Shown here: one piece after another, positions 596 to 61,101 of the stretch
How the letters are laid out: each line of letters starts with the position of its first letter
How positions within the stretch are numbered: position 1 is the first letter of the stretch
Virus record (IMG/VR): IMGVR_UViG_3300046747_000551
Span: 1-64,000 of that record
Source: a virus
DNA: 64,000 nucleotides
Reading direction: 5' to 3' (one strand)
Made by a program: the position numbers and the translations under genes
Notes under the pieces: model-generated
The model's input: the letters and a program-made list of their open reading frames with translations, nothing else
Told to the model about the DNA's origin: nothing
Databases searched by the model: none

Positions 596-744
596 AAAAA
601 CCTAGTTGGTTTCTGTCCTCGGGAAATATCCGTCGGACGGTTTTCCTCGCAATTGGGCTGCGAAGTTACCCTGTCAGCGCCGGCCAGCCGCCAGACAGTT
701 TAGGCCGATTGCCCCAGACCAGTAGGGCCGTTAGGTCGTAGGAG

Positions 745-771
745 AAGTGTCCCGAAAATCGAAAAAGTCAA
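745..771 (-). promoter_or_regulatory. class B promoter TTGACT-N16-CACTT upstream of the capsid gene leader
   Basis: Matches the recurrent TTGACA-N16-CACT motif; spacer 750-765 counted as 16 nt. Confidence 0.7.
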
Positions 772-7756: not shown

Positions 7757-7783
7757 AAGTGCAGATTTTCAGACGTTTGTCAA
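7757..7783 (-). promoter_or_regulatory. class B promoter TTGACA-N16-CACTTA, about 10 nt from the portal ATG
   Basis: Exact motif; spacer 7762-7777. Confidence 0.75.
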
Positions 7784-10941: not shown

Positions 10942-11634
10942 CTAAGAAGTGGGCGGTTCCGGCGTTTTGTCAAGCCGCATCACGGTGCTGGAGTGCCAAA
11001 AAGTTTGGCCCGACGGCGCCCGGTGCCCGAGCTGGCGCAGCCGCTCCGCAATGACCTGATATGTCATCCCCCGCCGGCGCAGGTCGCGGATGACGACGAG
11101 GATATGCCGCTCGTCCGCGTTCTCAGCCGGGTCCGGGTTGTCCCCGAACCGCCGCGGCCCGCCGCAGGGCCGGCCGGTCTTCGCCGCCGTGCGCCGCCGG
11201 CCGTCTTGCAGCTTCTTAACAATGACGGCCTTCTCCCACTGCGCCAGCGCGCCGAGCAGTTGCCGCAGCAACACGCGCGTCGGGTCGCCGTCCTTGCAGG
11301 TCAGTTCCTGGCCGGTGTCCGCGGCGAATACCTTGACGTTTTGCTCCTGGCACTTCACGAAAAAAAGTTCCTGGGCCATGAGGTCGCGCGCCACGCGGTC
11401 CGCGCGCTCGACGATGATGGCGCCCACGTCGCAGGCCACCGCGAGTTCCAACATCTCAATGAGCATGAGGCGGTCCTCGAACGCCGCGCCGCCGGACTGT
11501 TGCTCCTCGAACGTGCGCGCGATGGTGAACCCGACGTGGTCCGCATACGCGTGCACCGCGTCGCGCTGGCGCTCCAGCCCGTTCATGTCGAGCTGTTCCT
11601 TGGTGCTGACGCGCAGGTATGCGAAAGTTCTCAT
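10942..11634 (-). CDS. serine recombinase (resolvase catalytic domain plus recombinase DNA-binding domain)
   Basis: AYLRVST (catalytic Ser), DRVARD, QLLGALAQWEK and C-terminal IAERL...G..W..STV. Confidence 0.9.
   Translation of the reverse strand: MRTFAYLRVSTKEQLDMNGLERQRDAVHAYADHVGFTIARTFEEQQSGGAAFEDRLMLIEMLELAVACDVGAIIVERADRVARDLMAQELFFVKCQEQNVKVFAADTGQELTCKDGDPTRVLLRQLLGALAQWEKAVIVKKLQDGRRRTAAKTGRPCGGPRRFGDNPDPAENADERHILVVIRDLRRRGMTYQVIAERLRQLGHRAPSGQTFWHSSTVMRLDKTPEPPTS
10947..10973 (-). promoter_or_regulatory. class B promoter TTGACA-N16-CACTTC
   Basis: Exact motif inside the 3' end of the recombinase gene, upstream of the FN3 gene ATG at 10936. Confidence 0.7.
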
Positions 11635-13438: not shown

Positions 13439-13647
13439 ATTCTATCCTTACCAGTGCCATAGATTGGCGGGATGTCAAGGGTTGCTCGATGGTTTGAGAT
13501 GAATTGTGCGATTTGGTCCGCGGTGCCCGTAACGATGATTTCCGAGCCGACGCGGTCGATGATGGTGAGCCCGGCGTCCGTCAACTCGGAAATGAGCGCG
13601 GTGGCCCGGGCTTCGTGGCCGGCGTAAACGTGATAGTGGTTGTTCAT
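13435..13647 (-). CDS. hypothetical protein
   Basis: Start MNNHYHV at 13647, with GAGGA and class B promoter 13658-13685 upstream. Confidence 0.55.
   Translation of the reverse strand: MNNHYHVYAGHEARATALISELTDAGLTIIDRVGSEIIVTGTADQIAQFISNHRATLDIPPIYGTGKDRI
13451..13478 (-). promoter_or_regulatory. class B promoter TTGACA-N16-CACTGG
   Basis: Exact motif; spacer 13457-13472. Confidence 0.7.
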
Positions 13648-13657
13648 ATCGTCCTCT

Positions 13658-13685
13658 ACAGTGCCAGATTCCCCGCCGTTGTCAA
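13658..13685 (-). promoter_or_regulatory. class B promoter TTGACA-N16-CACTGT
   Basis: Exact motif; spacer 13664-13679. Confidence 0.7.
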
Positions 13686-16001: not shown

Positions 16002-16028
16002 AGGTGCGGCCCAGGCGCGAAATGTCAA
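16002..16028 (-). promoter_or_regulatory. leftward promoter TTGACA-N16-CACCT (class B variant)
   Basis: Spacer 16007-16022; divergent partner of 16234-16261. Confidence 0.6.
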
Positions 16029-16271: not shown

Positions 16272-17030
16272 ATGATATCGAGCCGCACAGTTCTGCACGA
16301 GGCAATACGTCGCCTGCACCAAGTCTGGAAGCGCTGGGACCTTTTCAACCGGGATGGAGTGCCCATGGCCGAGGCCGAGGCTGCCCGGCTCCGGGATATG
16401 AAGGCCGACCTGCTGGCGCGCATTGGTCTGTCGCGCATTCGCAACAAGGCCGCGTGGTATGAACGCGTCGAGAGTGCTTGTTCGGCACCACCGGTCAAGG
16501 TCGCCTCGTCCGTGCCGGCGTGCGTCCGCGACTTCGAGCAGCCGCACGACTGCCCGACGTGGCGCGGCCTGGACAGTGCGGAACCCGAGCGCAAGGTGGT
16601 GGGGCTGGTCTGGTGCCGACGCGTGGGGCGCTGGGCTATTCGCATCCAGTGCCGGCGCATCCAGGGCCAGCGTGCGGAGTATCTCAACACCGAGACGCAC
16701 GGCATGTCCTGGGGCCACCTCGCCGTGGCCATCGACCATCTCAAGTGCGTCCTCATTTTTCGCGGGCACCTCAGCTTGCCGGTGTTCGGCACCCGCACTT
16801 CTGCATGGAATGCCTGGAGTTTTGCCAAGGAGAAAATGGACTGTGGCGACGTGGAACTAGACCTGGACAACCCGCTGCATGCACACCTCGCGCAATGGCT
16901 CTCGCGCCAGGAGAAGCTGACCGAGGACCGCATCAAGTATCCGGATGCCACGCTGCGCGACTACCCCAAAGAGACCGCGGCCGAGGCGCGCTATATCAAT
17001 GACGCGTTTGGGAGCAACGTGGCCTCTTGA
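16272..17030 (+). CDS. hypothetical protein (first gene of the rightward arm)
   Basis: Start MISSRTVLHE at 16272, directly after the promoter. Confidence 0.65.
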   Translation: MISSRTVLHEAIRRLHQVWKRWDLFNRDGVPMAEAEAARLRDMKADLLARIGLSRIRNKAAWYERVESACSAPPVKVASSVPACVRDFEQPHDCPTWRGLDSAEPERKVVGLVWCRRVGRWAIRIQCRRIQGQRAEYLNTETHGMSWGHLAVAIDHLKCVLIFRGHLSLPVFGTRTSAWNAWSFAKEKMDCGDVELDLDNPLHAHLAQWLSRQEKLTEDRIKYPDATLRDYPKETAAEARYINDAFGSNVAS

Positions 17031-17062
17031 CATTTTTCGAAAAGTCCACACTGGGATAGGTA
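17027..17062 (+). promoter_or_regulatory. class B promoter TTGACA-N16-CACTGGGATAGGTA
   Basis: Nearly identical to 27109-27146; similar to the copies at 30972 and 34332. Confidence 0.8.
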
Positions 17063-22653: not shown

Positions 22654-22682
22654 TTGACAAACCGGCCCGCCCGGGCTACCTT
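22654..22682 (+). promoter_or_regulatory. class A promoter TTGACA-N17-TACCTT
   Basis: ATG at 22688 opens a 56-aa ORF, MSNETKNEPS... Confidence 0.6.
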
Positions 22683-26905: not shown

Positions 26906-27141
26906 AACTCAACAAACTCGAAAAAGAACTAGACGCCCGGTTCGCGGACATCGGCTTCCCGAGCCACGACGACCCAACCATCCCGCCCGCCATGCGGATA
27001 CAGCTGGCGCACTGCATCGCGCGCTTTTACAGCGGCGAGGTGCTCGTCGTGGACCGCCGCGGGAACGCGCTGCGCATCTACGCTCGCGCGAATCCTAATC
27101 CCGGGGGGTTGACATTTCCGAAAAAGTCCACACTGGGATAG
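26902..27141 (+). CDS. hypothetical protein
   Basis: ATGA overlap with the previous gene. Confidence 0.5.
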   Translation: MKLNKLEKELDARFADIGFPSHDDPTIPPAMRIQLAHCIARFYSGEVLVVDRRGNALRIYARANPNPGGLTFPKKSTLG

Positions 27142-29858: not shown

Positions 29859-30180
29859 GCTGTGGCATTATGTAAGTCGCAAGCTGCGCGCGTATGCGCG
29901 ATTCTTCCACTTACCGCTGCGCGAGGTCAAGCTGATGGCGCCGCACAAGAATTTTTACGGCGACTGCTCCAGCGACGGGCGCATTCGCATTCAGCTTCGG
30001 CGAAACGGGGACCGGCCCATCGCCTACCAAATCATCGACACCATGGCGCACGAGCTGGCGCACCTGGAATACCAGAATCACAAGCCGCCCTGGTTCCGGC
30101 TGCACATGGGCCTTCTCGTCCGCATGATGGACGACGGCGTATATGACGACCTCCGCCGGCTCTGCAAAAAAGCCCGTTGA
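29836..30180 (+). CDS. zinc metalloprotease-like protein (WLM/SprT/YgjP type)
   Basis: G.C...G.IRIQLR...DTMAHELAHL...H: HExxH with a downstream His. Confidence 0.75.
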   Translation: MSAPSDAELWHYVSRKLRAYARFFHLPLREVKLMAPHKNFYGDCSSDGRIRIQLRRNGDRPIAYQIIDTMAHELAHLEYQNHKPPWFRLHMGLLVRMMDDGVYDDLRRLCKKAR

Positions 30181-30204
30181 CAAATCGAATTGCCTCACCA
30201 CTTC
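30177..30204 (+). promoter_or_regulatory. class B promoter TTGACA-N16-CACTTC
   Basis: Exact motif; supports a GTG start at 30217. Confidence 0.7.
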
Positions 30205-30768: not shown

Positions 30769-30781
30769 GGGGGTGATTTAG

Positions 30782-30967
30782 ATGCCAGTAAAAACCAAAA
30801 AGACCAAGTGCGGCTACAGCAACAGCACGCCCGGCGGAAGCAAAGGGAAGTGCATGACCAAGAAAAACGCTGCGGCCCAGAAGCGACTGCTGAATGCCGT
30901 GGACCACGGCTATGTGCCGACCGGCAACAAGCACGAGGCCATGAAAAAGCGCGTCATGGGGGAGTGA
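30782..30967 (+). CDS. small basic hypothetical protein
   Basis: TKKNAAAQKRLLNAVDHGYVPTG, a recurrent small phage protein pattern. Confidence 0.6.
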   Translation: MPVKTKKTKCGYSNSTPGGSKGKCMTKKNAAAQKRLLNAVDHGYVPTGNKHEAMKKRVMGE

Positions 30968-30971
30968 CCCC

Positions 30972-31004
30972 TTGACAATTCCAGAAAACCCTACACTGGG
31001 ATAG
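30972..31004 (+). promoter_or_regulatory. class B promoter TTGACA-N16-CACTGGGATAG
   Basis: Exact motif; ATG at 31010. Confidence 0.8.
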
Positions 31005-31009
31005 ATGTA

Positions 31010-32203
31010 ATGAGCAACGCAGCAACCCGAGTCCATCACCCCTACTCTCCGAGCACGCTACAGGCTCGGGAGGCCTGCCCGTGTTGGACCCCGTCTGGGG
31101 GCACCAACGAGGCGGCGGAGGCGGGCACGCTGCAACACGACGCGGCGGAAAAAGGTCTGGACGACCCGCGGTTGTCTGATGCCCAGGCAGCCGCGGTCGC
31201 CCAGTGCAAGGCCTTCTGTGACGACCTCGCCAGCAAGTTCCCGGGCGCCACGGTTCTCAACGAGCAATACCTCCCGGTGGACGATGAAGTAATCGCGGTG
31301 CAGGACCCGCCGCCGCTTCGCTCCCGCAGCATTTTCGTGGGGACCACCGCTGGCTTCATGGACTGGGGTCTGGTCACCGCGGACGGCCTGCACGGCGAGC
31401 TGGTGGACTACAAGTTCGGCCAGCACGCGGTCGAAGACACCGACAACAATCTCCAGGGCATTTCCTACGCGCTCGGGCTGTTCAAGAAATACCCGACGCT
31501 GCGCGACGTGACGGTGACCTTCCTACTCCCGTATCGCGACGAGGTGGACCAACACACCTTCGATATGAGCAACGCGGCCGCACTCCTCTTGCGCATCAAA
31601 ACCGTTGTGCATAGGGCGATAGAAGCCAAGCGTGCGGGAGACTTTTTGACGGCACGCCCGAGCGTCTCCGCGTGTTCGTTCTGCGGTGAGCTGGGCCGCT
31701 GCCCGAAAGTCGCGGAGCTGGCGCTGCACGTCGGCCGCAAGTATCGGCCCATCGACGTGCCGAAAAGTTTGACGCCCTCGATGATGCTCGACCCGAAAGA
31801 TGTGGGCCTCGGGCTGCAACTGGCGCAGGTGCTGAAGGCCTGGGCCGAGGCATACCGCGCGCAGGCGACCCAGAAGACCATCCTGGACGACCACTTTGTT
31901 CCGGACGGCTACAAGCTGGTGTCGTCCGTCAAGCGACACGTCCTGCCCGGCAAGGCCCGGGAGCTGGCGAACATCGCCAAAGAATTTTTGCCTGAGGAGC
32001 AGCACGACATGGTCGAGGCCCTTTTCGACATCTCGCTCGGCCCCCTGGAAAAACTAATCTCCGCCGCCGCACCGCGCGGCAGCAAAGAAGAGGCGGTCGA
32101 AACCTTCGGGGAGTGTATCCTCGAAGCCGGCGCAGTGGAGGAAGGCGAACCCTATGCCTACCTGCGCATGGACACGACCGGAAAACCGAAAACCAAGACC
32201 TAA
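31010..32203 (+). CDS. Cas4-like PD-(D/E)XK exonuclease (DUF2800 type)
   Basis: HHPYSPS...CP, AAEAGTLQH, GFMD...VDYKFG, NLQGISYA, ACSFC...CP (four Cys); sits in a standard exonuclease-SSB-PolA module. Confidence 0.85.
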   Translation: MSNAATRVHHPYSPSTLQAREACPCWTPSGGTNEAAEAGTLQHDAAEKGLDDPRLSDAQAAAVAQCKAFCDDLASKFPGATVLNEQYLPVDDEVIAVQDPPPLRSRSIFVGTTAGFMDWGLVTADGLHGELVDYKFGQHAVEDTDNNLQGISYALGLFKKYPTLRDVTVTFLLPYRDEVDQHTFDMSNAAALLLRIKTVVHRAIEAKRAGDFLTARPSVSACSFCGELGRCPKVAELALHVGRKYRPIDVPKSLTPSMMLDPKDVGLGLQLAQVLKAWAEAYRAQATQKTILDDHFVPDGYKLVSSVKRHVLPGKARELANIAKEFLPEEQHDMVEALFDISLGPLEKLISAAAPRGSKEEAVETFGECILEAGAVEEGEPYAYLRMDTTGKPKTKT

Positions 32204-33084: not shown

Positions 33085-33113
33085 TTGACAGGAGGACGGC
33101 GGCGTGCTAGACT
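33085..33113 (+). promoter_or_regulatory. class A promoter TTGACA-N17-TAGACT
   Basis: Near-consensus sigma70 promoter immediately after the terminator. Confidence 0.7.
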
Positions 33114-34331: not shown

Positions 34332-34363
34332 TTGACATTTTCGGGAAACTCCACACTGGGATA
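34332..34363 (+). promoter_or_regulatory. class B promoter TTGACA-N16-CACTGGGATA
   Basis: Exact motif, directly upstream of the polymerase start. Confidence 0.8.
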
Positions 34364-36331: not shown

Positions 36332-38553
36332 AACTTTTCTGCCTGCGCAACCTCAGCTCGCACGAGGTCACCACCTGTGTCCCGTGGGAATTCGGTCCGG
36401 AAAATCTGGGAGCGGTTCCCCCGGAGGCCTTCTCGGATAAGACGGTCCGAGACACCTGGGCCAATCGCCCCGGCACGGTGCATCAAATGTATTCGTGCTA
36501 CCAGGGGTCCAACCCGAACCTGCGCATCAGCAAAGAGAATCCGCCACACGACGCACGCGCCGCGGCCATCGACGTGGACGTGAAGCTGACGCGGCCCGAG
36601 CTGGACGGCGCGCTGGAGCGAATGGGCGACCGCAAGCCGAACTATATCGAGACCACTTTTTCCGGCCACTTCCGGCTCGTCTGGCTGTTCGCGGTGCCCA
36701 TCGGTTTTCTCGGCGACATGACTTTCGCAAAGTTCGTCCTTGAGCATCTGCATGAGCTGCTGCCGTATCGCCAGTGTCCGGGAATTGATGAGGGCGCCGT
36801 CTCGCGTGGCACGCAATACTACACTAACGGTTGTCGCTGGGAAAAAATTCACGACACCCCCATTCCGGCGGACCTGCTCATTGGCTGGCAAATGGCCATC
36901 TCCAAAAAATTCAACTGGGCGGATACCAAGGACGCGGTGAAAATCCCGCTCGACGTGGTCGAGGCGAAGCTGCGCGAAATGTTTCCTCGGTTCGTGACTG
37001 AGTGGAAATCGGAGTTCAAGAAGGATGCGCAGGGGCCGACCTTCTGGGAACCGGAATCGACGAGCCCGAATTCGGCAATCGTGAACGACCACGGTATCCG
37101 GTCCTTTGCGGACCACGCCTCACACAAGCCGTTTATGACCTGGGCCGACTTTTTCGGCGCGCAGTTCGTGGCCGAGTATCAGCTGAAGCTGCTGGGCAAC
37201 GCGGTCGAGGGCATCTACTACGACGGCCGGCAGTTCATCCGAAAACAGTCTGAGGGCAAGTGGCTGTTCGGCGGCGCGGACGACCTGTCGCGTCACCTGC
37301 GCTGCGAGCGCGGGCTCTCCGACCGCCGGCCCAAGGGCCGCAACGCTTCGCCCGTGGACGAGGCCATCTCCTTCATCCAAAACAAAGGCCACATCACGTC
37401 GGCCGGGAGTTTCTCCTTCTACCCCAAAGGCATCATGGAACGTTACGGCAAAACATTTCTCAACATCCACAACCGCGACGTGCTGACCCCGGCACCGGGC
37501 ACCCAGAAGTGGGGCGACAAGTTCCCCTTCATCGCCAAGTTTTACGACGGCTGGCTGACTTCCGAAGCCGCGCTCACGGCGTATCTGTCGCACCTGTCGT
37601 ATGCGTTTCGCTGCGCGTTCAATCGCGCCCCGCAGCCCGGGCAAGTGTCCGTCTTCGTCGGTCCGCCGAGCTGCGGAAAAACGCTCAACACGCGCTACAT
37701 CATCGGCGCGCTGTTCAATGGCTACGCGGAGTGCCAGGACTGGATGATGGGCCGCGACCAGTTCAACAGCGAGTTGTTCGAGGTCTTCAATTGGGCCATC
37801 GACGACAACACAATGGGGCTTGACGCGCGCTCGCATCGTATCTACACTGAGATGCTGAAAAGATGCTGTGCCAATCAAGCGTTCCGTTCCAACGAGAAGT
37901 TCCGCGCGGCCGGGCTGCTCGACTGGGCCGGCCGAATCTGGGTGTCGCTCAACAACGACGCGGCCAGCCTGCGGCACTTGCCGGAGCTGGGCATGTCGAA
38001 CATGGACAAGCTGAACCTTTACTGCTGCACGGTCCTCCGGACGGACGGGTTCGTTTTTCCTGCGCGCGAGGAAATCGCCCGCACGCTGGTCCAGGAACTG
38101 CCCTACTTCGGGAAGTTCCTGTTGGACTACGAAATCCCGGCGCACCGCATGGGCACGGAAAAGCGCTTCGGCCCCATTCATTACCACGACACGTCTTTGG
38201 TCATCGAGGCCAACCAATCGTCGCTGAGCGCCAGCATCGGCGAGCAGGTGGACGAGTGGATGCGCCAGTATTTTGTCGAGAAGCACCCTGAGCACGACTG
38301 CTGGGAAGGCACCGCCTACCAGCTCTACCAATCGATGGCCATCGACTGCCAGATGCGCGAGGCCATGGGCCGCACGACGGCGGACACGCTGAGCAAGACG
38401 CTCCCTGAGCTGGCGCAAAAAGGTTTCGACATCGAAATCCTGGGCGGCGAGTTCCGCCGCACGTTCCGAATTTGCCGGGGCAACCGTTACCCGAAGGGAC
38501 CGGTCGCCAAGACAATCAAGCAGACCCCCAACAACCCCTACGAAAAACAATGA
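36328..38553 (+). CDS. primase-helicase (primase-like N-terminus, P-loop NTPase C-terminus)
   Basis: AIDVD...TFSGHFRLVW (AEP-like DxD and SG..R), FVGPPSCGKT (Walker A), WAIDD (Walker B). Confidence 0.75.
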   Translation: MKLFCLRNLSSHEVTTCVPWEFGPENLGAVPPEAFSDKTVRDTWANRPGTVHQMYSCYQGSNPNLRISKENPPHDARAAAIDVDVKLTRPELDGALERMGDRKPNYIETTFSGHFRLVWLFAVPIGFLGDMTFAKFVLEHLHELLPYRQCPGIDEGAVSRGTQYYTNGCRWEKIHDTPIPADLLIGWQMAISKKFNWADTKDAVKIPLDVVEAKLREMFPRFVTEWKSEFKKDAQGPTFWEPESTSPNSAIVNDHGIRSFADHASHKPFMTWADFFGAQFVAEYQLKLLGNAVEGIYYDGRQFIRKQSEGKWLFGGADDLSRHLRCERGLSDRRPKGRNASPVDEAISFIQNKGHITSAGSFSFYPKGIMERYGKTFLNIHNRDVLTPAPGTQKWGDKFPFIAKFYDGWLTSEAALTAYLSHLSYAFRCAFNRAPQPGQVSVFVGPPSCGKTLNTRYIIGALFNGYAECQDWMMGRDQFNSELFEVFNWAIDDNTMGLDARSHRIYTEMLKRCCANQAFRSNEKFRAAGLLDWAGRIWVSLNNDAASLRHLPELGMSNMDKLNLYCCTVLRTDGFVFPAREEIARTLVQELPYFGKFLLDYEIPAHRMGTEKRFGPIHYHDTSLVIEANQSSLSASIGEQVDEWMRQYFVEKHPEHDCWEGTAYQLYQSMAIDCQMREAMGRTTADTLSKTLPELAQKGFDIEILGGEFRRTFRICRGNRYPKGPVAKTIKQTPNNPYEKQ

Positions 38554-39329
38554 AGAACCTAGTCGTGGGCTACGCGCACCATCAAGACACCAAACGCGGC
38601 GAGGAATACCTCTCCCGCTTCGGTAACTGGATGCCCTTGCACCCCCACTATTTCAATATGAGCGACAACCAAAGCTACTACGCCCCCGGGACGGACCTGA
38701 AGTTCACCCTCCTCTCTGCCGAAGAAGAGACACGCCTGTTCACCGTCGCCCGCGGCGGTCGATATACGGCGACCGAGGTGAACGCCGCGCGCGACTACAT
38801 CATCACCAACCATCTGCTTTTCGCGGCGACTTACGCGAGGCGAATCGTGAAGGGCAAGCTGCCCGACAACGAGGTCGTCAGCGCCGCGAATTTCGGCCTG
38901 ATGAAGGCGTTCGAGGCGTTTGACCACAAGCGCGGGAAACGTTTCTCGTGCTACGCGAAGCCCTACATCCGGTCCGAAATCGCCACGCTCTGGCGCTCCA
39001 AGGACATCGTGGACTACCACGGCAATTTTCCGGACGTGACCGAGGACAACGTCGCGATGCTCGACCCCGACTGCGGCGTCGTCATGCCGGACAACGAGGG
39101 CGACAGCCGCGAGCTGGTGTTGAAGTGCCTGGAGGAATCCAAGTCCGTGCTCAACGCCAAGGAAGCGAAAATCCTGCGCATGCACTACGAGCAGGGACTG
39201 AACATGCGGGAAATCGCGGACACGTTCGACATCACGCGCGAGCGCATTCGACAAATCCACGACGTGGCCATCGCCAAGCTGGCCCGGGCCTTCAAGCGTG
39301 CCGGCGTGAACGCACAGGGGGAAGTATGA
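38550..39329 (+). CDS. phage-encoded RNA polymerase sigma-70 family factor
   Basis: LLSAEEETRL (region 1.2), GLMKAFEAFDHKRGKRFSCYA (region 2), MREIADTFDITRERIRQI...AIAKL (region 4.2). Confidence 0.92.
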   Translation: MKNLVVGYAHHQDTKRGEEYLSRFGNWMPLHPHYFNMSDNQSYYAPGTDLKFTLLSAEEETRLFTVARGGRYTATEVNAARDYIITNHLLFAATYARRIVKGKLPDNEVVSAANFGLMKAFEAFDHKRGKRFSCYAKPYIRSEIATLWRSKDIVDYHGNFPDVTEDNVAMLDPDCGVVMPDNEGDSRELVLKCLEESKSVLNAKEAKILRMHYEQGLNMREIADTFDITRERIRQIHDVAIAKLARAFKRAGVNAQGEV

Positions 39330-39532
39330 GCGAGTCCGTCAAGTGCCCCGTGTGCGGGCTGACCGACGTGGAGGTGTGCTGCGACGAGGTGGACAACGAG
39401 GTCGGCATCCAGCGTTTCGTCTGGGGCTACGTCTGCAAGAAGTGTGGCGAGATACCCGTGTGCCCGGACTGCGGGGCCTGCATCGCCTCGCCGGGGGACC
39501 ACATGGTCTGGTGTGAGAGGGACAAAGAATGA
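39326..39532 (+). CDS. zinc-ribbon protein
   Basis: CPVCG, CKKCG, CPDCG. Confidence 0.6.
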   Translation: MSESVKCPVCGLTDVEVCCDEVDNEVGIQRFVWGYVCKKCGEIPVCPDCGACIASPGDHMVWCERDKE

Positions 39533-40017
39533 ACATCCTTGCGCTAGACCTCGGGACGAACACCGGCTGGGCGCGCCGCCTGGACGGGAAAGTAGTGTCT
39601 GGCACTTGGTCATTGCCGCCGAAAAAGAAGGGCGCGGACTGCTGCGTCATCGACCCGCGGCTCATTCTTTTCCGGCAGCGCCTGCGGGACAACACCGACG
39701 TGGATGCGTTGGTTTATGAGGACGTGAAGTTCGTGCGGTCCCAAGCGCAGGCCCACCTCTGGGCCGGCTTCCGCGCCGTGCTTTGGCTTTTTGCACACGA
39801 CTTCAGCATCCCGACCTTTTGCTGCCCGGTGCAGACCTTGAAAAAGTTCGCGACCGGCAGCGGGGCGGCGGACAAGGATGCGATGGCGCTGGCCTACTAT
39901 GAAAAGGTGGGCCTGAATCCGCGGTTCGCGGCGCTAGATGACAACGCCATCGACGCGTGGCATCTACTGCATTGGGCAGAAGCGACCTTGACGAAACCGG
40001 AAATTGGCACACCTTAA
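39529..40017 (+). CDS. RuvC-like Holliday junction resolvase
   Basis: ILALDLGTNTGWA, LVYE, TLKKFATGSGAADKDAM, DDNAIDA. Confidence 0.85.
   Translation: MNILALDLGTNTGWARRLDGKVVSGTWSLPPKKKGADCCVIDPRLILFRQRLRDNTDVDALVYEDVKFVRSQAQAHLWAGFRAVLWLFAHDFSIPTFCCPVQTLKKFATGSGAADKDAMALAYYEKVGLNPRFAALDDNAIDAWHLLHWAEATLTKPEIGTP
39988..40015 (+). promoter_or_regulatory. promoter TTGACG-N16-CACCTT (class B variant)
   Basis: Same spacing; ATG at 40024. Confidence 0.55.
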
Positions 40018-41877: not shown

Positions 41878-41906
41878 TTGACAGGACGAACCCCCTGTTG
41901 TAACCT
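41878..41906 (+). promoter_or_regulatory. class A promoter TTGACA-N17-TAACCT
   Basis: ATG at 41915. Confidence 0.65.
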
Positions 41907-45921: not shown

Positions 45922-48820
<2,899 letters not shown>

Positions 48821-49643: not shown

Positions 49644-52600
49644 TTACTGCGACTCGACGATTTTCGCAACCTTGGACTTGACCTTTTTCGGGGGCTTGGG
49701 CGGCGTGAACTCCAGCTTGCCCTCGGGGGTCTTCGTCGTGTGCTCCAAGAGCCCTTGGTAGGTGGCCCCGTGCTGCGCACCCGCGCGTGCCCAGCCGTTT
49801 TCCTCCCAGAGCCGTTGCTCGTTCACCCAGAGGATTGCCTGGAGCGCGTCGGGCTTGATGCCGATTCGGTCCGCGGCTTCCTGGAAGGCCTTTTCGCCGG
49901 CGAAGTATTCGGGGTTCGAGATGCCCGTCTCGGCTTGGTGGATGATTCGCCAGGGCTGCCCCTCAGAGCTGAGGCGCGTCATCGTCCGCATCGCCCACTT
50001 GTCCACGATTCCCTTGAACCATAGACCAATCAGGTTGCCCGTGAACGACGGCGTCTTGGGACCCTCAACGGATTCCATCCACGTTCCGTCCAGCACCTTC
50101 ATCACCGCGCGCGAGTTCATCCCGTATTTCGCGCCGTTCGCTTTTTTCGGCACGAGGTCGTGCTTGTCGGCCCACCAATACAGGAAGTCACTGAGCTGTC
50201 CGGATTTCACGGCTGACGCACTCGCTTCCTTTTGGAAGTCCGCCATCGCTTCCGGGTCCTTGGCGGCAAACTTCGCTTTGCCCTCGCGATACTTCGCGAC
50301 CATGTCATCGTAGGCGCCGGACTTGATTTGATTGAACGCGGCGACCGCATCGGAAAAGTTCGGGGCCACCTTCTGCTGCGGGGACGTCGCCCCGAGCAGC
50401 TCGCCGAAAAGTTTGATGTCTTCGGGCGTCTTCAGCACCTCGCGCAGTTTGGTCCGGCACAGTTCATACCACTGCTCCGCGCCCTTCAGCTCGGGGCGGT
50501 CCTTGATGGAATTGTATTCCTCTTCCATCTTTTTCGACAGGTCCGTCGTGAAGGCATCCACTGACCCGGACTTTTTCGCGAGCGGCGTGTTGAAAAGGTC
50601 CCACTCCTGCGCGGCGAAAAGGGGCTCCCCGTCCCACGCGGCGCGGACGTTGCCGGCCTTGTCCCGGCGCAGCTCGGGCGCCAGCACCTCGGGGAACGAC
50701 TTGGCTTTTGCCACCAAACTCTCGGCGTAGTCGTTGAAGCCGGGGGTTCCCTGCGGCGGGATGTTCTCGGGCAGGTAGCCCCCGCGGCTGCGCGCGATTT
50801 GAATGCCAGAGGGACCGCCCTTTCGGGCCTGGGCCTCGGGCTTCACCCGGTCGAGCATGTCCATCGCCGCGCCACGCGGGTCTTCGGCATCGAAAAGCCG
50901 GGCGGCGACTTGGTCCACTACCTGTCCGTCGTCGTTGAGCAGATTGATTTGCGCACGGTCCAGATTTTCGGCGTGGTCCGTGAGCAGGGTTTCGATTGCC
51001 TGTTTCGCTTTGCCCTTGAAAAATTTCTGGTTCGCTTCGACGGTCAGGTTGCCGTTATACTCGCGCGCGCGGATGAAGCCCTTATTGATGGCGTCCTGCC
51101 GGTCTTGAATGTTCGCGGTGTCGCTGAAGCTGGTGCCGAACTGTTTGTTGAGCTGGTCCGCGTTCTCGCCGAGCCACGTCTGGTGGTAATCCGTGTCGAG
51201 CGGAACATACTCCCCGTTCGGCAGCACCCAGCCCGTGGGCTTGTCGCCCTTCGGTTTCTGGCTCGCCGGCACGTTGTATTTTTCGTAGGGATTAGGTTCT
51301 TCCTCTTTGGGCGCGCGCTTCTTCGGCAGATATCCCCCGCGCTCGCCGGGCTTCACCTCGTCCACGCTGATAAGTTTGCCCGTCTTGAGAACCAACTTTT
51401 TGACGGCCTCGTCGGCGGTGGCGCCCTCGATGGTTTGACTGAAGGTATCCTTGCTCGTCTCACCGGGTTTCCAGGTCACTTTCCACTGGCGTGGTTCGCC
51501 GGTGGGCCGCACATCGGATTCCGTGGGTCCGCCAAAGTCTTCTTCGCGTTCGACAGGCTTGAGGGTGTCCAGGGCTCCGTTTTCTCGAAGCTGGCGAACG
51601 ATGCTATCGTAGGTGCCGATGCGGCGAAAAGCCTTCATGGCCACCCGCTCTTTGTTAGCGGGGGAATCCACTTCAATGACGGTCAGATATTCCGGCTTCG
51701 CTTTTCGGACACTCTCTTCAAAGTCGCGGCTGAAAATAGCTTCTCGGAGCTGTTGCTTAGTCCCCTCCAGGATATCCATTCCGCCGTAGTTCTCGACTTT
51801 GACCGCGGGGGCCTTCGAGAATTCTTCCCCAAAGGGGTCCGTCAAAAAGCGGGCGACCTTACCGCGGTCCGCGGGCCAGGGCAGCGACGTGGAGGCGAGA
51901 ACATTGCCGTTCAGGTCATGCACGTCGGCGTGGAACATCGAGTAATAGGGCTCGCCTTCCAGCGCCACTTGGTCGAGCGAACTGAGGATTACGTTCTTCT
52001 GTGCGGAGGTCGGCTTGCGGGAGAACGACACGTTCATCGCCGAGTTGCCAAACTCTTCAACCGCGCGGGGCGAGTCTGCATTCGTGACACGCAGGGAACC
52101 CGTCTGGTGCTGGAATTCCAGCGTCGGCGATTCGCCGAGGCCCGTCATTTGCGACATCTTAGTTGCCGCGTCGTCGTGGTAATACGCGCTCTCCACGGAC
52201 TTCCATTTTCCGTTCGGCAATACCCAAGCGGCGCCAACGACTTCACCATCGTGCAATTCTTTTTCGTCCACGGTCGGCTTCTTCGGGGCCGGCTCCTTGA
52301 AGTCAGCCGGCGCGGGCAAATAACCCGCGCGGCGCATGCCCGGGGCATAGACCGGCTCCGTGCTGACGATGTGCGCGCCTTCAGGCACGCCGGCCTTTTG
52401 CTGGGCTTCTTCGGCACTGGCAGCGTGGACCGTTTGACGGAGGGTCGTCTTGCCTTCGGCCCGGGGCTTCCAGACGACGTGCCACCGGTCGTCCAGCGGC
52501 TTCACGTCCGCCTCGCCGGGCGTCAGCGGGTTCTCGCCGCGAGCCAACGCTTCCGCTGCCTTCGCCACTTCGGCCGGAGACTTCAGCACAGCTTCACCGT

Positions 52601-55600
52601 TGCCGCCGGTTGCCACAGACTCCTGCGCGGATAGGTCGTAGATGCCTTCCTGGCCGTTCGCTTTGGCAAACGCTGCGGAGTTGTCGCGGTGTTCCTGGTC
52701 CACCAGCGCGTTGATGTCCACGCTATATTGCTGCTTGCCTTCGGCGTCAGGCGTGGCCAGTCGGAAAACGCCGGCCTTGATGTTCTCGTTCTTGAGCGTC
52801 TCCTTGAAGGGTTCTAAAGCCTTGGCTACGCCGGCCGCGGTGAACTGGTCCGCGGGCAGATTGATGCTGGTCAGCGGGACAACGTCCAGCTTCGCGTCCG
52901 TCGGCGGCACGAACACCGAACCATCCGCGTTGAAGGTCTCGCCGTCCTTTTCTCCGTTTCGGATTGGTTCGAGCGCGGTCTCGGAAAGAAACCCGCCCTT
53001 CTTTTTGGCCAGCTCATTGCCGCGGTCCATCGCCTTCTGCGCCACCTCTGGCCCGTAGCGGCCGGCGAGGCGGTTCTGGACCTGCTCCATTGCCTTGTCG
53101 AAAGGAACGAAGTCGCCGGGATGGTTTTTCTGGTGCCAGTTGCGGATGGCGTTCTGAATGATGGGCCATTCCGACGCCGGAATGGACGAGTAGATGGTGT
53201 CCAGGTCTTCCGTCCCGAGGCGTGCCAACACTCGCTTCACCGCATCCGTTCCGCCGGCCTTCTGGAAACGCTCGATGGGCATGTTCTCCACGACCTTGGC
53301 CACCGTCTCCGGCGAAGTCCATTCGGACTTGGGAACGGTGTCGAGTTCCTTGGACAGCTCGTCGTTGTAAATGCCGGCCGCGCGTTTTCCGAGCGACGTG
53401 AATTCTTTCGGGGCCACGCCGGTCGCGGGCACGCCCTGGTGGCGGGGGCTGAACTCTTTGAACTCGCTCGCCAGACCACGCGCGCGTTGGTTCTTTTCGA
53501 TGTAGTCCGCGATGTCGTAAACGACCTTCTGGTCGGTGTAGGGCATGTTCCGAAACTGCTCGGTCGTGAGGCCTTGGTCCATCTGGCGCATGACCTGGGC
53601 ATAGTCGAATTTCTGTGTCATGCCGCGAACCAGCCCCGCGTTCTGCATGTCGCCAAGCAGCGATTCGTAGGACCCCTTTTCGGGCGGGGCCTCGGGCGTC
53701 AGGAACGCCTTGGGCTCCCCACCTCCCGCGAACGGCGGCTTTGCGTCCGGGTGCGACTTACGCCAGCCGGACTCGCCAGCCGCGGAACCCTTGTCCGTCG
53801 CGGCCTCGATGGCTTCACGGAAAAATTGTGCCTTGGTCGCGTCCGCCGATGCCTTGTCCAACGCATCGAAGTTCCCGCCGCGGACTTCGGCCATCGTCGC
53901 TTGTGCGGTCTTGGATGCCGCATCCTGGGCAGCCATGAGCGTGTCCAGGTCGGCCCGGTCCTTGAGCCCGAGGCCGAGGTCATACGCGGAGCGCGTGAGC
54001 GAGCCCTGCGGCCCGAAAAATTTCTGCCACTGCTCGGGCGTGGCATCCGTGACGTCCTTGACGGTTTCGCCCACGGGCTTTTCCGGCAGATAGCCAGCGC
54101 GCGCGATGTCGGTCTGTCCGCCCTTGCCTTGCAGCTCCGGCGCGGGTTCCGCCTTCACGATGTCTGCGGCGTTGAGGCGTTCCACAACCGTGTGCAGGTC
54201 GCCCACCGGCATGCCGGCGGCGCGGAGACGATTGCGCAGCGGGTTGGTCTCTTTGACTTCCACCGGACCCCGTCCCTGGGTCGCCTTCTCGGGGTAAATA
54301 GGAATGTTGGTGCCCGGCGCGATGCGCTCAGACACGTCGCCCTGCGCGGCGCGGATTTCCTGGGCCTTGATGTTGGCCGGGAGCTGGCCCTTGACGGTGC
54401 GGGCGGTCTGGGGCGGTCCCACATCTTTGCCCTGAAGCAGATTGAGCCACTGCTCTTTCTCGGTGCCCAACTGCGTTCCTTCGCCCTTTTCGGCCGGGAT
54501 GGAGACGTTGACGCCTTCGGGGCGCACGAGTTTGCCGCCACCGCCGCGGAAGCCGCGGTCCTGGTTGTCCCAGTAGGTGCGCTGGTCCGCCAAAAGCTGG
54601 TTGAGCCCTGCCGCGGTCAGCGCGCCGTTCGCATCGGTCTCCCACGGGACGGTCTCGCCGGCCGCTTTTCCCCACTGCACGGCGCGGTCGATGTTGGAGA
54701 CGACCTTGTCCACGCTGCGGGCGATGACCTGGGGTTCGCCGGTCTTGGTCTGCTCCGCGCGCGTCAAAAACTTTTCCCCGGTATGGACCTCGCGTTGGTC
54801 GGGCGGCAAGCCGCGGCCTTCCTCGACCTCGGCCGCGCGCTCGGGCTCGGTCGGTTCGTAGGTGACCTTGGGCGCCCCGGCGTGTTCCATCCGGACCCCG
54901 ATGCCTTGGTCCATGGCCTGGGCCACGGTGTTCACCGCAGCCTCGTTGTCCTTGCCCTTGGACCACGACGTGAGGATACCCGTGTTCGTGACCGCGGCAC
55001 GTTTAGCAGAAGGAGCAGCCGGCGGAGTAGCTTCAGCCGGGGCCGGCGCGGGAGGGGACGCGGGCGGCGTGGCTTCGGCCGGTGCCGACGGCTGCTCAAA
55101 AAGTGGAAGTTCGCCCTGGGCGGTCGGTTCCGCGGCCGGCTTGACCGGGACCTCTACGGGCGCGGCGGGTGCCGGTGCGGGTTCGGCTGGCTGCACGGGC
55201 GGGGCAGCGGTGGCTTGCTGGGCGGCACGTTGGTCGCGTTCGGCCAGGATTTCCCCCGTGGCGTTGGCCAGCGCTTTGCGCAGGCTATACGACGGCTTCA
55301 GGTTCAACCCAGGCGTCTTGCGGCCGGCGGTCATGTCGAGCCCGAGCGCATTGCCCATGCTCACCGCGGCGTCCAGAAACTTTTGCCGGAAGGTGGTCTT
55401 CGCCTCAGGCAGCCCCAAGGATTCCATCGGGGTGTTGTAAAGCAGGTTCGCCCAGTTGTCCGCGATGAACTCGCTGCGGACTTCCTCGGGCGTGAACGGC
55501 CGGCCGAATTGCTGTTCGTAGTGCGCCTTGAGCGCATCGAGTTCCTCGGGCGTGTAGGCCTCGCGCACGGCATCGTGCAGGGCTTCCCGCGCCTCGGGCG

Positions 55601-57527
55601 CCATGACGGACTCCAGGACGTGGGAAAATTCGTGCGGCGCGTCCGCGGACGACTTCACCAGGGTCACGCTCTCCACGTTCCCCTTGTCGTCGGCCACGTT
55701 GATTTTCGACACGCCGCGAGAGCGGGCTTCCTGCGCGACGGCCGCTTGCTGCTCTGGTGTGAGCGGCTGGCCACCGTTGGCGCGGATGGTGTCCTGTTCG
55801 ATGGCCTTCTGGTAAGACGCATCATCCACCAAGAAAAGTTTCTTGCCGAACGGGCGCAGCGTCTCGCGCAGGCTGTCCACCATGTTGCGCGCGTTCTCCG
55901 GCGTTGAGGCGGAGACGGCCTCGTGTGCAGCGTTCAGGGCCGGGAAGCCCTCGTAACCGGGCGAGGGCGTTTTCTCCCAGTTAATTTGCCCGGGGTCGAA
56001 ATAGCGTTTCGCGCCGGCCTCAGCGACTGCGCCCTTGACGCCGGTCACCGCGCCGTGAACAGCTCCGCCCACCGCGCCGACACCGAGCAGCCCGCCTTGG
56101 GGCTCATCGGTGGCGAACGCGAGTGGAGCGGTTGTCGCTGCACCTTCCAGTGCGCCTACCACGGGCGGTTTGACAAAAGCTGCCGCGGTCTTCGCCGCGT
56201 TGAGGACCTTGGCTCCGGTCGTGGACTCCAGGCCGAGCGAGAGTTGCCCGGCCGGGGCCGCGCCGCCGGCTTCGCCGACTTCGCGAATGAATTGTCCGGT
56301 CTTGCTGATAACCGGTGCGGCCAGACGCGCGGCGACCAAGGCTTTGGTGGGCACGCCGAACATGTGCAGGAACGCCCCCGTGCCGATGCCATGCGCCGAG
56401 CTGGGGAGCAGGTTCTTGATGCCCTGGCCGGTGGCCTCGATACCTTGCCCGACAACCTGGGCGGTCTTCGCGGCTGCCGTTCCGGCCGCGCGCCCGAGAT
56501 AACTCAGGGCCGCGTCTGCGCCGGCTTGATTGGCTGCCGTGAAAAGGATGCGCCCGCCGGTAGAAACCGCTTTGAGCCCGACGCCCGTGCCGACGAGCGT
56601 GATGGGGTCCGTCAAGCTGAGGAGCTTGATGTTCTCCGGGTTGAGCTGCACGCCTTCGCTGACGAGATTTTTGACGCCCTCACCGCGGGAGAGTTCCTCG
56701 ACCGTTTGCTTCCAGCCGAGGTCCTTGAAAAATTCGTTCTTGAGTTCCTCGTCCGATATGGTCCGCCAGTCCTTTTTCCCGTGCAAATCAAAGGCCGGTC
56801 CGACGGCTTTGCGCGCACCCTGGCGCACCATGTCCTGGAGCGAGCCCACGGCGGTCTGCGTGCCGGCGGTGGCCTCCGCAATGGCGGCTTCCTTATTGTC
56901 CTCCGACATGGTTTCCCACTGCTTGCGCAGCTCGGGGTCGCCGCCCTCACCGCGCAGCGTCATCGTGATGGTGTTAACCAGCTTGCCGATGCCGCCGATT
57001 TCTCCGAGGTTCTCCAGCCGCGCCGGGATGGACTTCAGGATGTCCTTCAACAGCGGGACGGTGTCCTTCTTGACGGACTCCACGGTCTTATGGAGCGTGG
57101 CTCCCTGGGCCTGCTGCTCGCGATAAGTGTCGAGCGCCTTTTGATAGCGCTTCGGGTCCTTGAAAACGTCGGGATTCTGCGAGACGAAGTCGTGGATTTT
57201 GAAGTTCGGGTCCGCCGCCAAGTCCTGGGGTGTGCGTTCATCCAGGGCGTCGGCCTTGCGCTCCCCGGCAAAAGGGTCGTGGACCTGTTGCTCGCCGTGG
57301 AAGGGGTCAACCTGCTTCTCTCCGGCAAACGGGTCCGCCGGCTTGACGGCTTCTTTTTCCCCAGGCGCGAGCGGCGGCGGTTCGATGCCCTTCGCAGCGA
57401 AAGCCGCGCGCATCTTTGCGTGTTCCGCGGCCAGCGCTTCGGGCGTTAGAACGCCCGGCTGTTCCGCTGGAGTGAGTGGGATGTCCGTGAACGGCTGCCC
57501 CTCCGACAGGTCTTGGACGACTGGCAT
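49644..57527 (-). CDS. giant internal virion / DNA-ejection polyvalent protein (2627 aa)
   Basis: N-terminal DPFAGE repeats, Gly/Ala-rich hydrophobic helices, zincin motif PHEFSH...EFIAD, duplicated modules, and a C-terminal HhH-GPD-like domain. Last of a run of ejection-type genes. Confidence 0.75.
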   Translation of the reverse strand: MPVVQDLSEGQPFTDIPLTPAEQPGVLTPEALAAEHAKMRAAFAAKGIEPPPLAPGEKEAVKPADPFAGEKQVDPFHGEQQVHDPFAGERKADALDERTPQDLAADPNFKIHDFVSQNPDVFKDPKRYQKALDTYREQQAQGATLHKTVESVKKDTVPLLKDILKSIPARLENLGEIGGIGKLVNTITMTLRGEGGDPELRKQWETMSEDNKEAAIAEATAGTQTAVGSLQDMVRQGARKAVGPAFDLHGKKDWRTISDEELKNEFFKDLGWKQTVEELSRGEGVKNLVSEGVQLNPENIKLLSLTDPITLVGTGVGLKAVSTGGRILFTAANQAGADAALSYLGRAAGTAAAKTAQVVGQGIEATGQGIKNLLPSSAHGIGTGAFLHMFGVPTKALVAARLAAPVISKTGQFIREVGEAGGAAPAGQLSLGLESTTGAKVLNAAKTAAAFVKPPVVGALEGAATTAPLAFATDEPQGGLLGVGAVGGAVHGAVTGVKGAVAEAGAKRYFDPGQINWEKTPSPGYEGFPALNAAHEAVSASTPENARNMVDSLRETLRPFGKKLFLVDDASYQKAIEQDTIRANGGQPLTPEQQAAVAQEARSRGVSKINVADDKGNVESVTLVKSSADAPHEFSHVLESVMAPEAREALHDAVREAYTPEELDALKAHYEQQFGRPFTPEEVRSEFIADNWANLLYNTPMESLGLPEAKTTFRQKFLDAAVSMGNALGLDMTAGRKTPGLNLKPSYSLRKALANATGEILAERDQRAAQQATAAPPVQPAEPAPAPAAPVEVPVKPAAEPTAQGELPLFEQPSAPAEATPPASPPAPAPAEATPPAAPSAKRAAVTNTGILTSWSKGKDNEAAVNTVAQAMDQGIGVRMEHAGAPKVTYEPTEPERAAEVEEGRGLPPDQREVHTGEKFLTRAEQTKTGEPQVIARSVDKVVSNIDRAVQWGKAAGETVPWETDANGALTAAGLNQLLADQRTYWDNQDRGFRGGGGKLVRPEGVNVSIPAEKGEGTQLGTEKEQWLNLLQGKDVGPPQTARTVKGQLPANIKAQEIRAAQGDVSERIAPGTNIPIYPEKATQGRGPVEVKETNPLRNRLRAAGMPVGDLHTVVERLNAADIVKAEPAPELQGKGGQTDIARAGYLPEKPVGETVKDVTDATPEQWQKFFGPQGSLTRSAYDLGLGLKDRADLDTLMAAQDAASKTAQATMAEVRGGNFDALDKASADATKAQFFREAIEAATDKGSAAGESGWRKSHPDAKPPFAGGGEPKAFLTPEAPPEKGSYESLLGDMQNAGLVRGMTQKFDYAQVMRQMDQGLTTEQFRNMPYTDQKVVYDIADYIEKNQRARGLASEFKEFSPRHQGVPATGVAPKEFTSLGKRAAGIYNDELSKELDTVPKSEWTSPETVAKVVENMPIERFQKAGGTDAVKRVLARLGTEDLDTIYSSIPASEWPIIQNAIRNWHQKNHPGDFVPFDKAMEQVQNRLAGRYGPEVAQKAMDRGNELAKKKGGFLSETALEPIRNGEKDGETFNADGSVFVPPTDAKLDVVPLTSINLPADQFTAAGVAKALEPFKETLKNENIKAGVFRLATPDAEGKQQYSVDINALVDQEHRDNSAAFAKANGQEGIYDLSAQESVATGGNGEAVLKSPAEVAKAAEALARGENPLTPGEADVKPLDDRWHVVWKPRAEGKTTLRQTVHAASAEEAQQKAGVPEGAHIVSTEPVYAPGMRRAGYLPAPADFKEPAPKKPTVDEKELHDGEVVGAAWVLPNGKWKSVESAYYHDDAATKMSQMTGLGESPTLEFQHQTGSLRVTNADSPRAVEEFGNSAMNVSFSRKPTSAQKNVILSSLDQVALEGEPYYSMFHADVHDLNGNVLASTSLPWPADRGKVARFLTDPFGEEFSKAPAVKVENYGGMDILEGTKQQLREAIFSRDFEESVRKAKPEYLTVIEVDSPANKERVAMKAFRRIGTYDSIVRQLRENGALDTLKPVEREEDFGGPTESDVRPTGEPRQWKVTWKPGETSKDTFSQTIEGATADEAVKKLVLKTGKLISVDEVKPGERGGYLPKKRAPKEEEPNPYEKYNVPASQKPKGDKPTGWVLPNGEYVPLDTDYHQTWLGENADQLNKQFGTSFSDTANIQDRQDAINKGFIRAREYNGNLTVEANQKFFKGKAKQAIETLLTDHAENLDRAQINLLNDDGQVVDQVAARLFDAEDPRGAAMDMLDRVKPEAQARKGGPSGIQIARSRGGYLPENIPPQGTPGFNDYAESLVAKAKSFPEVLAPELRRDKAGNVRAAWDGEPLFAAQEWDLFNTPLAKKSGSVDAFTTDLSKKMEEEYNSIKDRPELKGAEQWYELCRTKLREVLKTPEDIKLFGELLGATSPQQKVAPNFSDAVAAFNQIKSGAYDDMVAKYREGKAKFAAKDPEAMADFQKEASASAVKSGQLSDFLYWWADKHDLVPKKANGAKYGMNSRAVMKVLDGTWMESVEGPKTPSFTGNLIGLWFKGIVDKWAMRTMTRLSSEGQPWRIIHQAETGISNPEYFAGEKAFQEAADRIGIKPDALQAILWVNEQRLWEENGWARAGAQHGATYQGLLEHTTKTPEGKLEFTPPKPPKKVKSKVAKIVESQ

Positions 57528-61074: not shown

Positions 61075-61101
61075 AAGTGTTCCGAATCAGTCCTTTGTCA
61101 A
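61075..61101 (-). promoter_or_regulatory. class B promoter TTGACA-N16-CACTT
   Basis: Spacer 61080-61095; ATG at 61066. Confidence 0.75.

Follow-up and report, generated by a model that had tools for sequence, protein, structure and literature searches.

The 73,178-bp virus record IMGVR_UViG_3300046747_000551, of which bases 1–64,000 constitute the window analysed here, contains a gene for a 259-residue sigma factor and a recurrent bipartite element, TTGACA-N16-CACT, in which a host-consensus −35 box is separated by a fixed 16-nucleotide (nt) spacer from a CACT tetramer. The two probably form a pair, that is, a phage sigma with a promoter class of its own. This pairing had been proposed in a first-pass annotation of the window, and it is supported by the statistics of the motif, its conservation and adjacency to genes, the domains of the sigma and a covariation, with exceptions, of the tetramer with the sigma among related phages. 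Counts given below for the genome cover the whole record.

The TTGACA-N16-CACT motif and its placement

The first-pass annotation had listed 13 TTGAC(A/T)-N16-CACT sites with an invariant spacer. All 13 are present in the 64-kb window, with starts that differ by one or two bases for a few of them (746–771 instead of 745–771). Dinucleotide-shuffled sequences contained 0.11 matches to TTGACW-N16-CACT on average, and none of 100 reached 13. The whole record holds 14 such sites and one match to the reversed pattern. Counting of matches for spacers of 10–23 nt, which had been suggested as a check, yielded 14 in the genome for N16 and none for any other length (shuffle means 0.08–0.32). When all pairs of a 5-mer and a 4-mer separated by a gap were enumerated without a prior motif, TGACA-N16-CACT ranked first in the genome, and the enumeration provided no second over-represented dyad able to serve the phage sigma. 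A weight matrix trained on 43 sites from four complete genomes, the present one and three close relatives, identified 16 sites at or above the threshold of 12 bits in the genome and none in five shuffles. The 16 comprise the 14 exact sites and both CACC variants that had been noted before.

The sites head nearly all transcription units of both gene arms. In the four complete genomes, 37 of the 43 sites are followed on the same strand by an open reading frame (ORF) of at least 50 codons that starts 3–20 nt downstream, compared to 18–21% of random positions. The present genome contributes 13 of 14 (random positions 21%), and the relatives 11 of 13, 7 of 9 and 6 of 7. The start codon is positioned 7–14 nt past CACT at all but one of the 14 exact sites, and 10–11 nt past both CACC variants. 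The claim that every site points into an adjacent gene therefore holds except for 746–771 (minus strand), where a 150-nt leader precedes a 426-codon gene. Among the names given to the downstream genes, the polymerase after 34332 and the exonuclease after 30972 agree with PHROG matches, whereas capsid, portal and ejection operon were not confirmed; the sole lead to a capsid protein comes from a neighbour cluster in the Atlas, 11% of whose members carry Phage_capsid_3. On sequence grounds, the motif is a conserved, gene-directed, promoter-like element.

The expected division of the sites into two sub-flavours was found across the four genomes, with CACTGG(G/T)A at 16 sites and CACTT at 27. Class A (16 of 43) consists of TTGACA, a T-rich spacer that often reads TTTTC-n-GAAAA, and CACTGG(T/G)A(A/T)G.GT; its sites fall at 13.4–34.4 kb, near the divergent region and among the replication genes. 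Class B (27 of 43) reads TTGACAA…CACTT(C/A)TTA with an A-rich start of the spacer and is located mostly in the structural arm. The sites of the genome are:

746–771, minus strand: class B, TTGACT-N16-CACT, ahead of the 150-nt conserved leader
7758–7783, minus strand: class B, 10 nt before the ATG of a highly conserved gene for a 732-residue protein; the orthologous site is kept in relatives
10948–10973, minus strand: class B, 11 nt before the ATG of a gene for a 91-residue protein
13453–13478, minus strand: class A (CACTGG), 14 nt before an ATG
13660–13685, minus strand: class A-like (CACTG), 12 nt before an ATG; its matrix score, 16.8 bits, is the lowest of the set
16003–16028, minus strand: CACC variant, class B-like, CACCTCTTA, in the divergent control region; 20.7 bits
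16234–16259, plus strand: class A, at the start of the plus-strand arm, with the ATG of a gene for a 252-residue protein 12 nt downstream
17027–17052, plus strand: class A, CACTGGGATAGG, with the palindrome TTTTCGAAAA within the spacer
27109–27134, plus strand: class A, 12 nt before the ATG of a gene for a 162-residue protein
30177–30202, plus strand: class B, in the replication arm
30972–30997, plus strand: class A, before the exonuclease gene 31010–32203
34332–34357, plus strand: class A, before the DNA polymerase, primase-like and sigma genes
39988–40013, plus strand: TTGACG-N16-CACC, a weak CACC variant ahead of the gene at 40024; 13.9 bits
49482–49507, minus strand: class B, before a gene for a 215-residue protein; the orthologous sites of other lineages read CATC, CATT or GACC
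61076–61101, minus strand: class B, with the ATG of an acetyltransferase-like gene 9 nt downstream
66347–66372, minus strand: 14th exact site, beyond the window, from the scan of the whole record

The two sub-classes probably set different timing or strength of expression. If the A of CACT is the flipped −11 base, transcription would start at about the ninth base past CACT. Start codons of class B are located 8–12 nt past CACT in the clade and 7–9 nt past the tetramer at the orthologous 215-residue-protein gene of other lineages; therefore, many class B messages would be leaderless or nearly so. The corresponding distance of 10–16 nt in class A would leave leaders of a few bases. An extended −10 element (TGnTAAGAG) in class A was rejected, as its spacer would be 22 nt and its distance to the ATG ranges from 2 to 8 nt. 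About half of the class A spacers contain a TTTTC-n-GAAAA inverted repeat (17033–17048, 27115–27130 and 34338–34353, plus strand), which also occurs in class A sites of the related genome G001. It may be the operator of a phage regulator or an element that shapes the spacer.

The leader that follows the first site of the list is a feature in its own right:

593–745, minus strand: conserved leader between the 746–771 site and the ATG at 595

The distance between the CACT site and the 426-codon gene is 142–157 nt, with orthologous leaders at L017:7749–7893, L021:1637–1784 and L025:18972–19131. A core of roughly 90 nt hardly varies between four genomes with protein differences of 12–35%. RNAalifold predicted several stem-loops with little covariation (compensatory changes at 3 of 34 pairs), and the leader had no match in Rfam. 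The leader may be a structured 5′ untranslated region or a regulatory RNA of a very highly expressed gene, perhaps the capsid gene.

The sigma protein and its relatives

38550–39329, plus strand: phage sigma gene, 259 residues; its ATG at 38550 overlaps the stop codon of the upstream gene for a 779-residue primase-like protein

The results of Pfam, HMMER and structure modelling together indicate that the protein is a two-domain member of the sigma-70 family with a region 4.2 helix of the primary type. Pfam family PF04542 (Sigma70_r2) matched residues 85–152, which align with region 2 of RpoD, with 37.1 bits against a cut-off of 24, and PF04545 (Sigma70_r4) matched residues 200–244 with 50 bits against 24.1. 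Pfam detected neither region 3 (PF04539) nor a region 1.2 domain in the 259-residue protein, although many of its weaker homologues do carry PF04539. In having no detected region 3 between regions 2 and 4, the protein departs from the group 1–3 sigmas (RpoD, RpoS, RpoH and FliA types). It passed TIGR02937, the model of the generic small sigma superfamily, which names no group of extracytoplasmic function (ECF) sigmas, with 71.9 bits against 42.9 over residues 80–247. RpoH-type models score best among the NCBIfam rows but remain far below their cut-offs (TIGR02392, 70.9 against 323.1 bits; NF005143, 72.6 against 241), and the FliA and RpoS models of NCBIfam score far under theirs.

The HMMER alignment to solved RpoD chains pairs FSCYAKPYIRSEIA with FSTYATWWIRQAIT of RpoD, and FDITRERIRQIHDVAIAKL with FDVTRERIRQIEAKALRKL. 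The region 4.2 helix, TRERIRQI, is identical to that of RpoD, and region 2.3–2.4 is altered at the positions aligned with the WW and Q of RpoD, as the first-pass annotation had read from the translation. In Escherichia coli numbering, the replaced residues are W433, W434 and Q437; Y430, whose aromatic ring stacks on the flipped A, is retained. A solved RpoH chain (8hkc_E) aligns to residues 53–145. The AlphaFold model, calculated from 21 homologues with a mean predicted local distance difference test score of 67.8, contains a helical sigma2 domain (residues 57–150), a helical sigma4 domain (183–251), a disordered linker (154–186) and a disordered N-terminus. Its best fold matches in Foldseek are sigma factors in initiation complexes. 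The N-terminal extension of about 55 residues includes a conserved YY..G.DL.F. A cysteine-rich, zinc-ribbon-like ORF of 68 residues (39326–39532, plus strand) is translationally coupled to sigma through an ATGA overlap with its stop codon, and likewise to the RuvC-like gene downstream. It was rejected as a partner of sigma, because its conservation next to sigma is limited to G001 (57% identity); G002, G003 and G006–G008 lack it there.

The sigma is carried by at least 15 records of a family of uncultivated phages with genomes of about 70–75 kb. Sigma and alignment searches identified close relatives of 65–97% identity, including a full-length 259-residue orthologue at 97%, and distant ones of 30–43%; all lie on phage contigs, which are about 70–75 kb long when complete. 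Among ten further genomes reached through the 732-residue protein, eight contain a sigma orthologue, and the two without it are 82% and 85% complete.

The first-pass annotation had asked whether region 2.4 and the −10 motif change together in related phages. Five related records with sigmas of 65–97% identity contain 13, 9, 7, 3 and 8 CACT sites, and the close relatives all keep AKPYI(R/Q)SEI along with the motif. In distant genomes, the exact CACT motif is nearly absent (1, 1 and 0 sites), and in several of them another tetramer occupies the same frame. Genome G010, whose sigma is 42% identical and combines IRGRI with the 4.2 helix TRERIRQI, has 13 TTGACn-N16-GACC sites (shuffle mean 0.82, maximum 3). 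G008 (34%, IRGAI) has six AACT sites compared to 0.2 in shuffles, and G006 (42%, IRGEI) has six CATC sites compared to 0.7; in each of the three genomes the over-representation is confined to N16. Four sigma lineages therefore share one TTGAC-N16 frame with four tetramers, CACT, GACC, AACT and CATC. At the residue that follows the S or G aligned with the Q of RpoD, Glu goes with a tetramer that begins with C, Arg with G, and Ala with A.

The same variation is visible at a single promoter. Regions upstream of the orthologues of the 732-residue protein gene were taken from 51 of the 66 loci found. Those with a TTGAC box keep the N16 frame and a T-rich stretch past the tetramer, and the tetramer itself varies by lineage (CACT, GACT, GACC, GACA, AACT, GTCT and others). 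Dyad statistics on loci of 10–20 kb were underpowered. The strongest dyad of G006 was rejected as a promoter, as it stems from a 12-bp tandem repeat; this array of about ten copies at around 30780–30900 adjoins a TTGACA box and possibly represents origin iterons. G007 contains 16 copies of the 8-mer GTGTAAAC, usually within cGTGTAAACg and on both strands, four of them in spacers of canonical promoters. The 8-mer occurs ten times in G006, six times in G008 and once in the present genome.

Candidate readers of the motif

Beside the CACT class, the genome contains a few promoters of the ordinary type. The search for TTGACn-N16–18-TAnnnT found six sites, where shuffles gave 1.4 on average and at most 5. 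The separate set with the ordinary spacer, which the first-pass annotation had described, is thus weakly above chance as a bare count, but three of its sites have a start codon 5–8 nt past the hexamer, and one of these is conserved:

22654–22682, plus strand: canonical TTGACA-N17-TACCTT, ATG 5 nt past the hexamer, leaderless geometry
33085–33113, plus strand: canonical TTGACA-N17-TAGACT, matching the consensus at 10 of 12 positions, second hexamer preceded by TG and followed 6 nt on by a GTG; upstream of the sigma operon
41878–41906, plus strand: canonical TTGACA-N17-TAACCT, conserved in G001, G002 and G003

Canonical sites with a start codon 4–7 nt past the hexamer occur in all 12 genomes tallied, with 2, 4, 1 and 1 in the clade and 5–9 in the distant genomes; shuffles, run for seven of the 12, gave means of 0.13–0.37. 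Since the A of the ATG occupies the usual start position, transcripts from these sites would be leaderless. The presence of the class in all 12 genomes indicates that the host-type −10 element is ordinary and constant between lineages, and we take it to be the class of the host primary sigma. Because this class stays constant, the changing tetramer is better explained as read by the changing phage sigma, and the occurrence of lineage-specific tetramers beside canonical TTGACA-N17-TAnnnT sites points to the phage sigma, not the main sigma of the host, as the reader.

Shine-Dalgarno (SD) cores precede 11 of 60 genes that start with ATG, compared to 6 of 60 control windows, and many gene junctions read TAA-n-ATG. 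An SD function of the bases past CACT was rejected, as the genome hardly uses such signals. The leaderless geometry of the canonical sites and the near absence of SD sequences are a clue to a host that translates leaderless, SD-less messages.

Based on these observations, a mechanism of transcription takeover can be proposed. The 259-residue sigma would bind the core RNA polymerase of the host and direct it to TTGACA-N16-CACT. Region 4.2 would read the TTGACA box, and the altered region 2.3–2.4 would read the −10 element, in which the A would be the flipped base and the first base, C in this genome, would be specific to the lineage. The sixteen sites would drive almost every transcription unit on both arms. 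Their transcripts are predicted to be leaderless or to have leaders of a few bases, because start codons are located 7–14 nt past CACT and are not preceded by SD sequences. The few canonical TTGACA-N17-TAnnnT promoters would be read by the main sigma of the host. One of them, at 33085, is located 1.2 kb upstream of the CACT site at 34332, which heads the polymerase-primase-sigma operon. The canonical site could supply the first sigma, and the CACT site could then provide positive feedback. Terminator-like sites in the region are at the level of chance (18 compared to 17.4), and in distant lineages a canonical site is positioned directly before the primase-sigma operon. A further step would be a series of orthogonal sigma/promoter pairs built on the TTGAC-N16-tetramer frame, with the first −10 base set largely by one residue of region 2.4 and most messages leaderless or nearly so; we regard this generalization as possible and put it forward tentatively. 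If true, it would amount to a readable, evolvable code by which a minimal sigma recognises the upstream edge of the −10 element.

Several observations weigh against a phage sigma with private promoters. G006, with IRGEI, has its CATC sites but also reads GACT and GACC at two orthologous positions, the tetramers of G007 are mixed (GTCT, GACC and CTCT), and no clear private tetramer was found in G009, G011, G012 or G013. The expected covariation is visible in four tetramers within one N16 frame, but it has exceptions. The lineages may differ in host as well, and this would confound it. The sigmas of G002 and G003 have TRARVHQI instead of TRERIRQI, yet these genomes keep TTGACA. Thus, a 4.2 helix identical to that of RpoD is not what determines the −35 box, and while the identity claimed in the first-pass annotation stands, the argument that it preserves host −35 specificity is weakened. 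A host sigma would read TTGACA equally well. With the geometry of the canonical class, many class A leaders would be 2–8 nt long, neither leaderless nor led by an SD sequence. The sigma gene itself is behind a CACT site, so that its initial expression from 33085 requires read-through.

The sites could instead be read by an alternative sigma of the host, of the heat-shock type or a two-domain stress sigma, with the phage sigma serving some other small set of promoters. The phage-private character of the motif was judged from phage genomes. A C that precedes the conserved A and a 16-nt spacer also occur with non-primary host sigmas. The RpoH-type models at the top of the NCBIfam rows suggest that a host sigma of this type could share the specificity, and the relation between residue and base is not without exceptions. 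However, the genome offers no other over-represented dyad for the phage sigma to use, and the tetramer shifts with the lineage of the phage sigma while the frame remains fixed. The arrangement would also be less economical, as nearly all operons would depend on a stress sigma while the phage left its own sigma unused. We consider such a reader rather unlikely.

It is quite unlikely that the primary sigma of the host uses the TTGACA boxes despite a poor −10 element, with CACT and its flanks serving as signals for an activator, a repressor or an appropriator and with the phage sigma as an accessory. TTGACA is the primary-sigma consensus and is kept even where the 4.2 helix of the phage sigma differs, the TTTTC-n-GAAAA repeats in class A spacers resemble operators, and the conserved blocks past CACT (GGTAAG.GTG or TCTTA) extend beyond a normal −10 element. 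Nevertheless, at these sites TTGACA has no TAnnnT within a usable distance, although the same genomes do contain true canonical sites with 17-nt spacing in other places. A gap between TTGACA and the tetramer that stays at 16 nt across four lineages is what would be expected of one protein that holds both elements.

We give very little credence to a motif that is no such promoter at all, acting as a replication, packaging or translation signal or as the promoter of a phage RNA polymerase that escaped recognition. In its favour, several large proteins (732, 644, 655 and 2627 residues) have no match and could conceivably include a polymerase, and fragments resembling SD sequences (TAAG, AGGT) are found between CACT and the start codon at some sites. 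Against it stand the bipartite build with a perfect −35 box, the rigid spacer of 16 nt, the strict agreement in orientation with the gene downstream, the presence of the sigma gene in every complete relative examined and the scant use of SD sequences by the genome. A promoter of a T7-like single-subunit polymerase, which CACT recalls, was rejected, since no such polymerase was recognised and the element is bipartite with a −35 box.

Genome context and relation to known systems

The record is classed as having direct terminal repeats and as 100% complete, and a script found a terminal repeat of 127 bp. The repeat falls inside the 426-codon gene, which spans the record ends (window positions 1–595 and genome positions 72366–73178, minus strand). 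Because the ORF closes at 426 codons when one copy of the repeat is removed, the repeat seems to be where a circular or permuted assembly overlaps itself and not a physical genome end. The G+C content is about 62%. The genome contains no tRNA genes, and no Rfam family matched within the window. No near match by DNA was found for the genome in the phage collection, and a protein search of the collection gave just three unannotated matches at 26% identity.

The genes form two divergent arms, both starting near 16.1 kb. The plus-strand arm (16.2–45.2 kb) encodes a helicase, an exonuclease, DNA polymerase, the primase-like protein, sigma, a RuvC-like resolvase, a second exonuclease and a glycosyltransferase. 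The minus-strand arm extends downward from 16.0 kb, crosses the record ends, finishes at 45.6 kb and encodes tail-fibre proteins, the 2627-residue protein and many proteins without a family match. The 732-, 644-, 655- and 2627-residue proteins had no family, PHROG or PDB match, apart from one weak C-terminal PHROG match of unknown function in the 2627-residue protein (49644–57527, minus strand), which may be an internal or ejection protein. The ORF of 890 residues at 45922–48594 (minus strand), with long GPT/GAT triplet repeats of the collagen type and a C-terminal third rich in glycine, probably encodes a tail fibre and accounts for the odd codon-position G+C of this segment. A serine recombinase/invertase-like gene (10942–11634, minus strand; PHROG integrase/invertase, E of about 1e-26 to 1e-23) is present in a genome that otherwise appears lytic. 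In the search for a host, the epimerase gave just a 31% match in one metagenome-assembled genome, and the nearest clusters of the glycosyltransferase were viral.

Phage sigmas with private promoters are a textbook idea, but few pairs have been defined, and almost none from uncultivated phages. A full-text literature search returned nothing on this phage group or on the TTGACA-N16-CACT motif, which is no proof of absence. Both halves of the proposed pair can be read from sequence, namely a minimal sigma with a primary −35 helix and a rewritten −10 region, and a rigid promoter class on nearly every operon. If the pairing is correct, the variants of the tetramer and of region 2.4 would constitute a natural experiment on recognition of the −10 element at its upstream edge. 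Small orthogonal sigma/promoter parts could also be derived from them, and the phage programme would be built wholly on leaderless or near-leaderless messages.

Promoters of RpoH have a TTGA-type −35 box and a C that precedes the conserved A of the −10 element. The present sigma is reminiscent of RpoH in its top NCBIfam rows and in the alignment of 8hkc_E, whereas it scores far under the RpoH cut-offs, has no detected region 3 or region 1.2 and is borne by a phage. ECF (group 4) promoters have a 16–17-nt spacer, a short −10 element with an invariant C and an AAC-type −35 box. The phage protein shares with ECF sigmas the sigma2-linker-sigma4 build and the match to TIGR02937, but its −35 box and 4.2 helix are of the primary type, it has the N-terminal extension, and it has no visible anti-sigma partner; no anti-sigma gene turned up here, although no search was aimed at one. 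T4 gp55 and SPO1 gp28 and gp33/34 similarly bring about a temporal switch of transcription by replacing the host sigma; their promoters are not known to have a host-like −35 box.

The closest parallel is provided by phages phiEco32 and 7-11. Their phage-sigma promoters were inferred from over-represented motifs, belong to two classes and are assigned to middle and late genes, and the sigma gene is behind both host-type and phage-type promoters, which gives feedback (PMC4331800). The resemblance lies in a phage sigma that would redirect the host core polymerase and in an over-represented, phage-only motif of two classes. The promoters of phiEco32 and 7-11 are described as single −10-like elements without a −35 box (PMC4331800), whereas the present promoter is bipartite, with a host-consensus −35 box, a fixed 16-nt spacer and a new tetramer. 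The sigmas, set side by side by description, differ in that the present one has a two-domain build and is accompanied by tetramer variants across its family. Takeover of transcription by a phage sigma is itself known; what appears to be new here is the combination of a host-consensus −35 box with a fixed N16 spacer and a new −10 tetramer.

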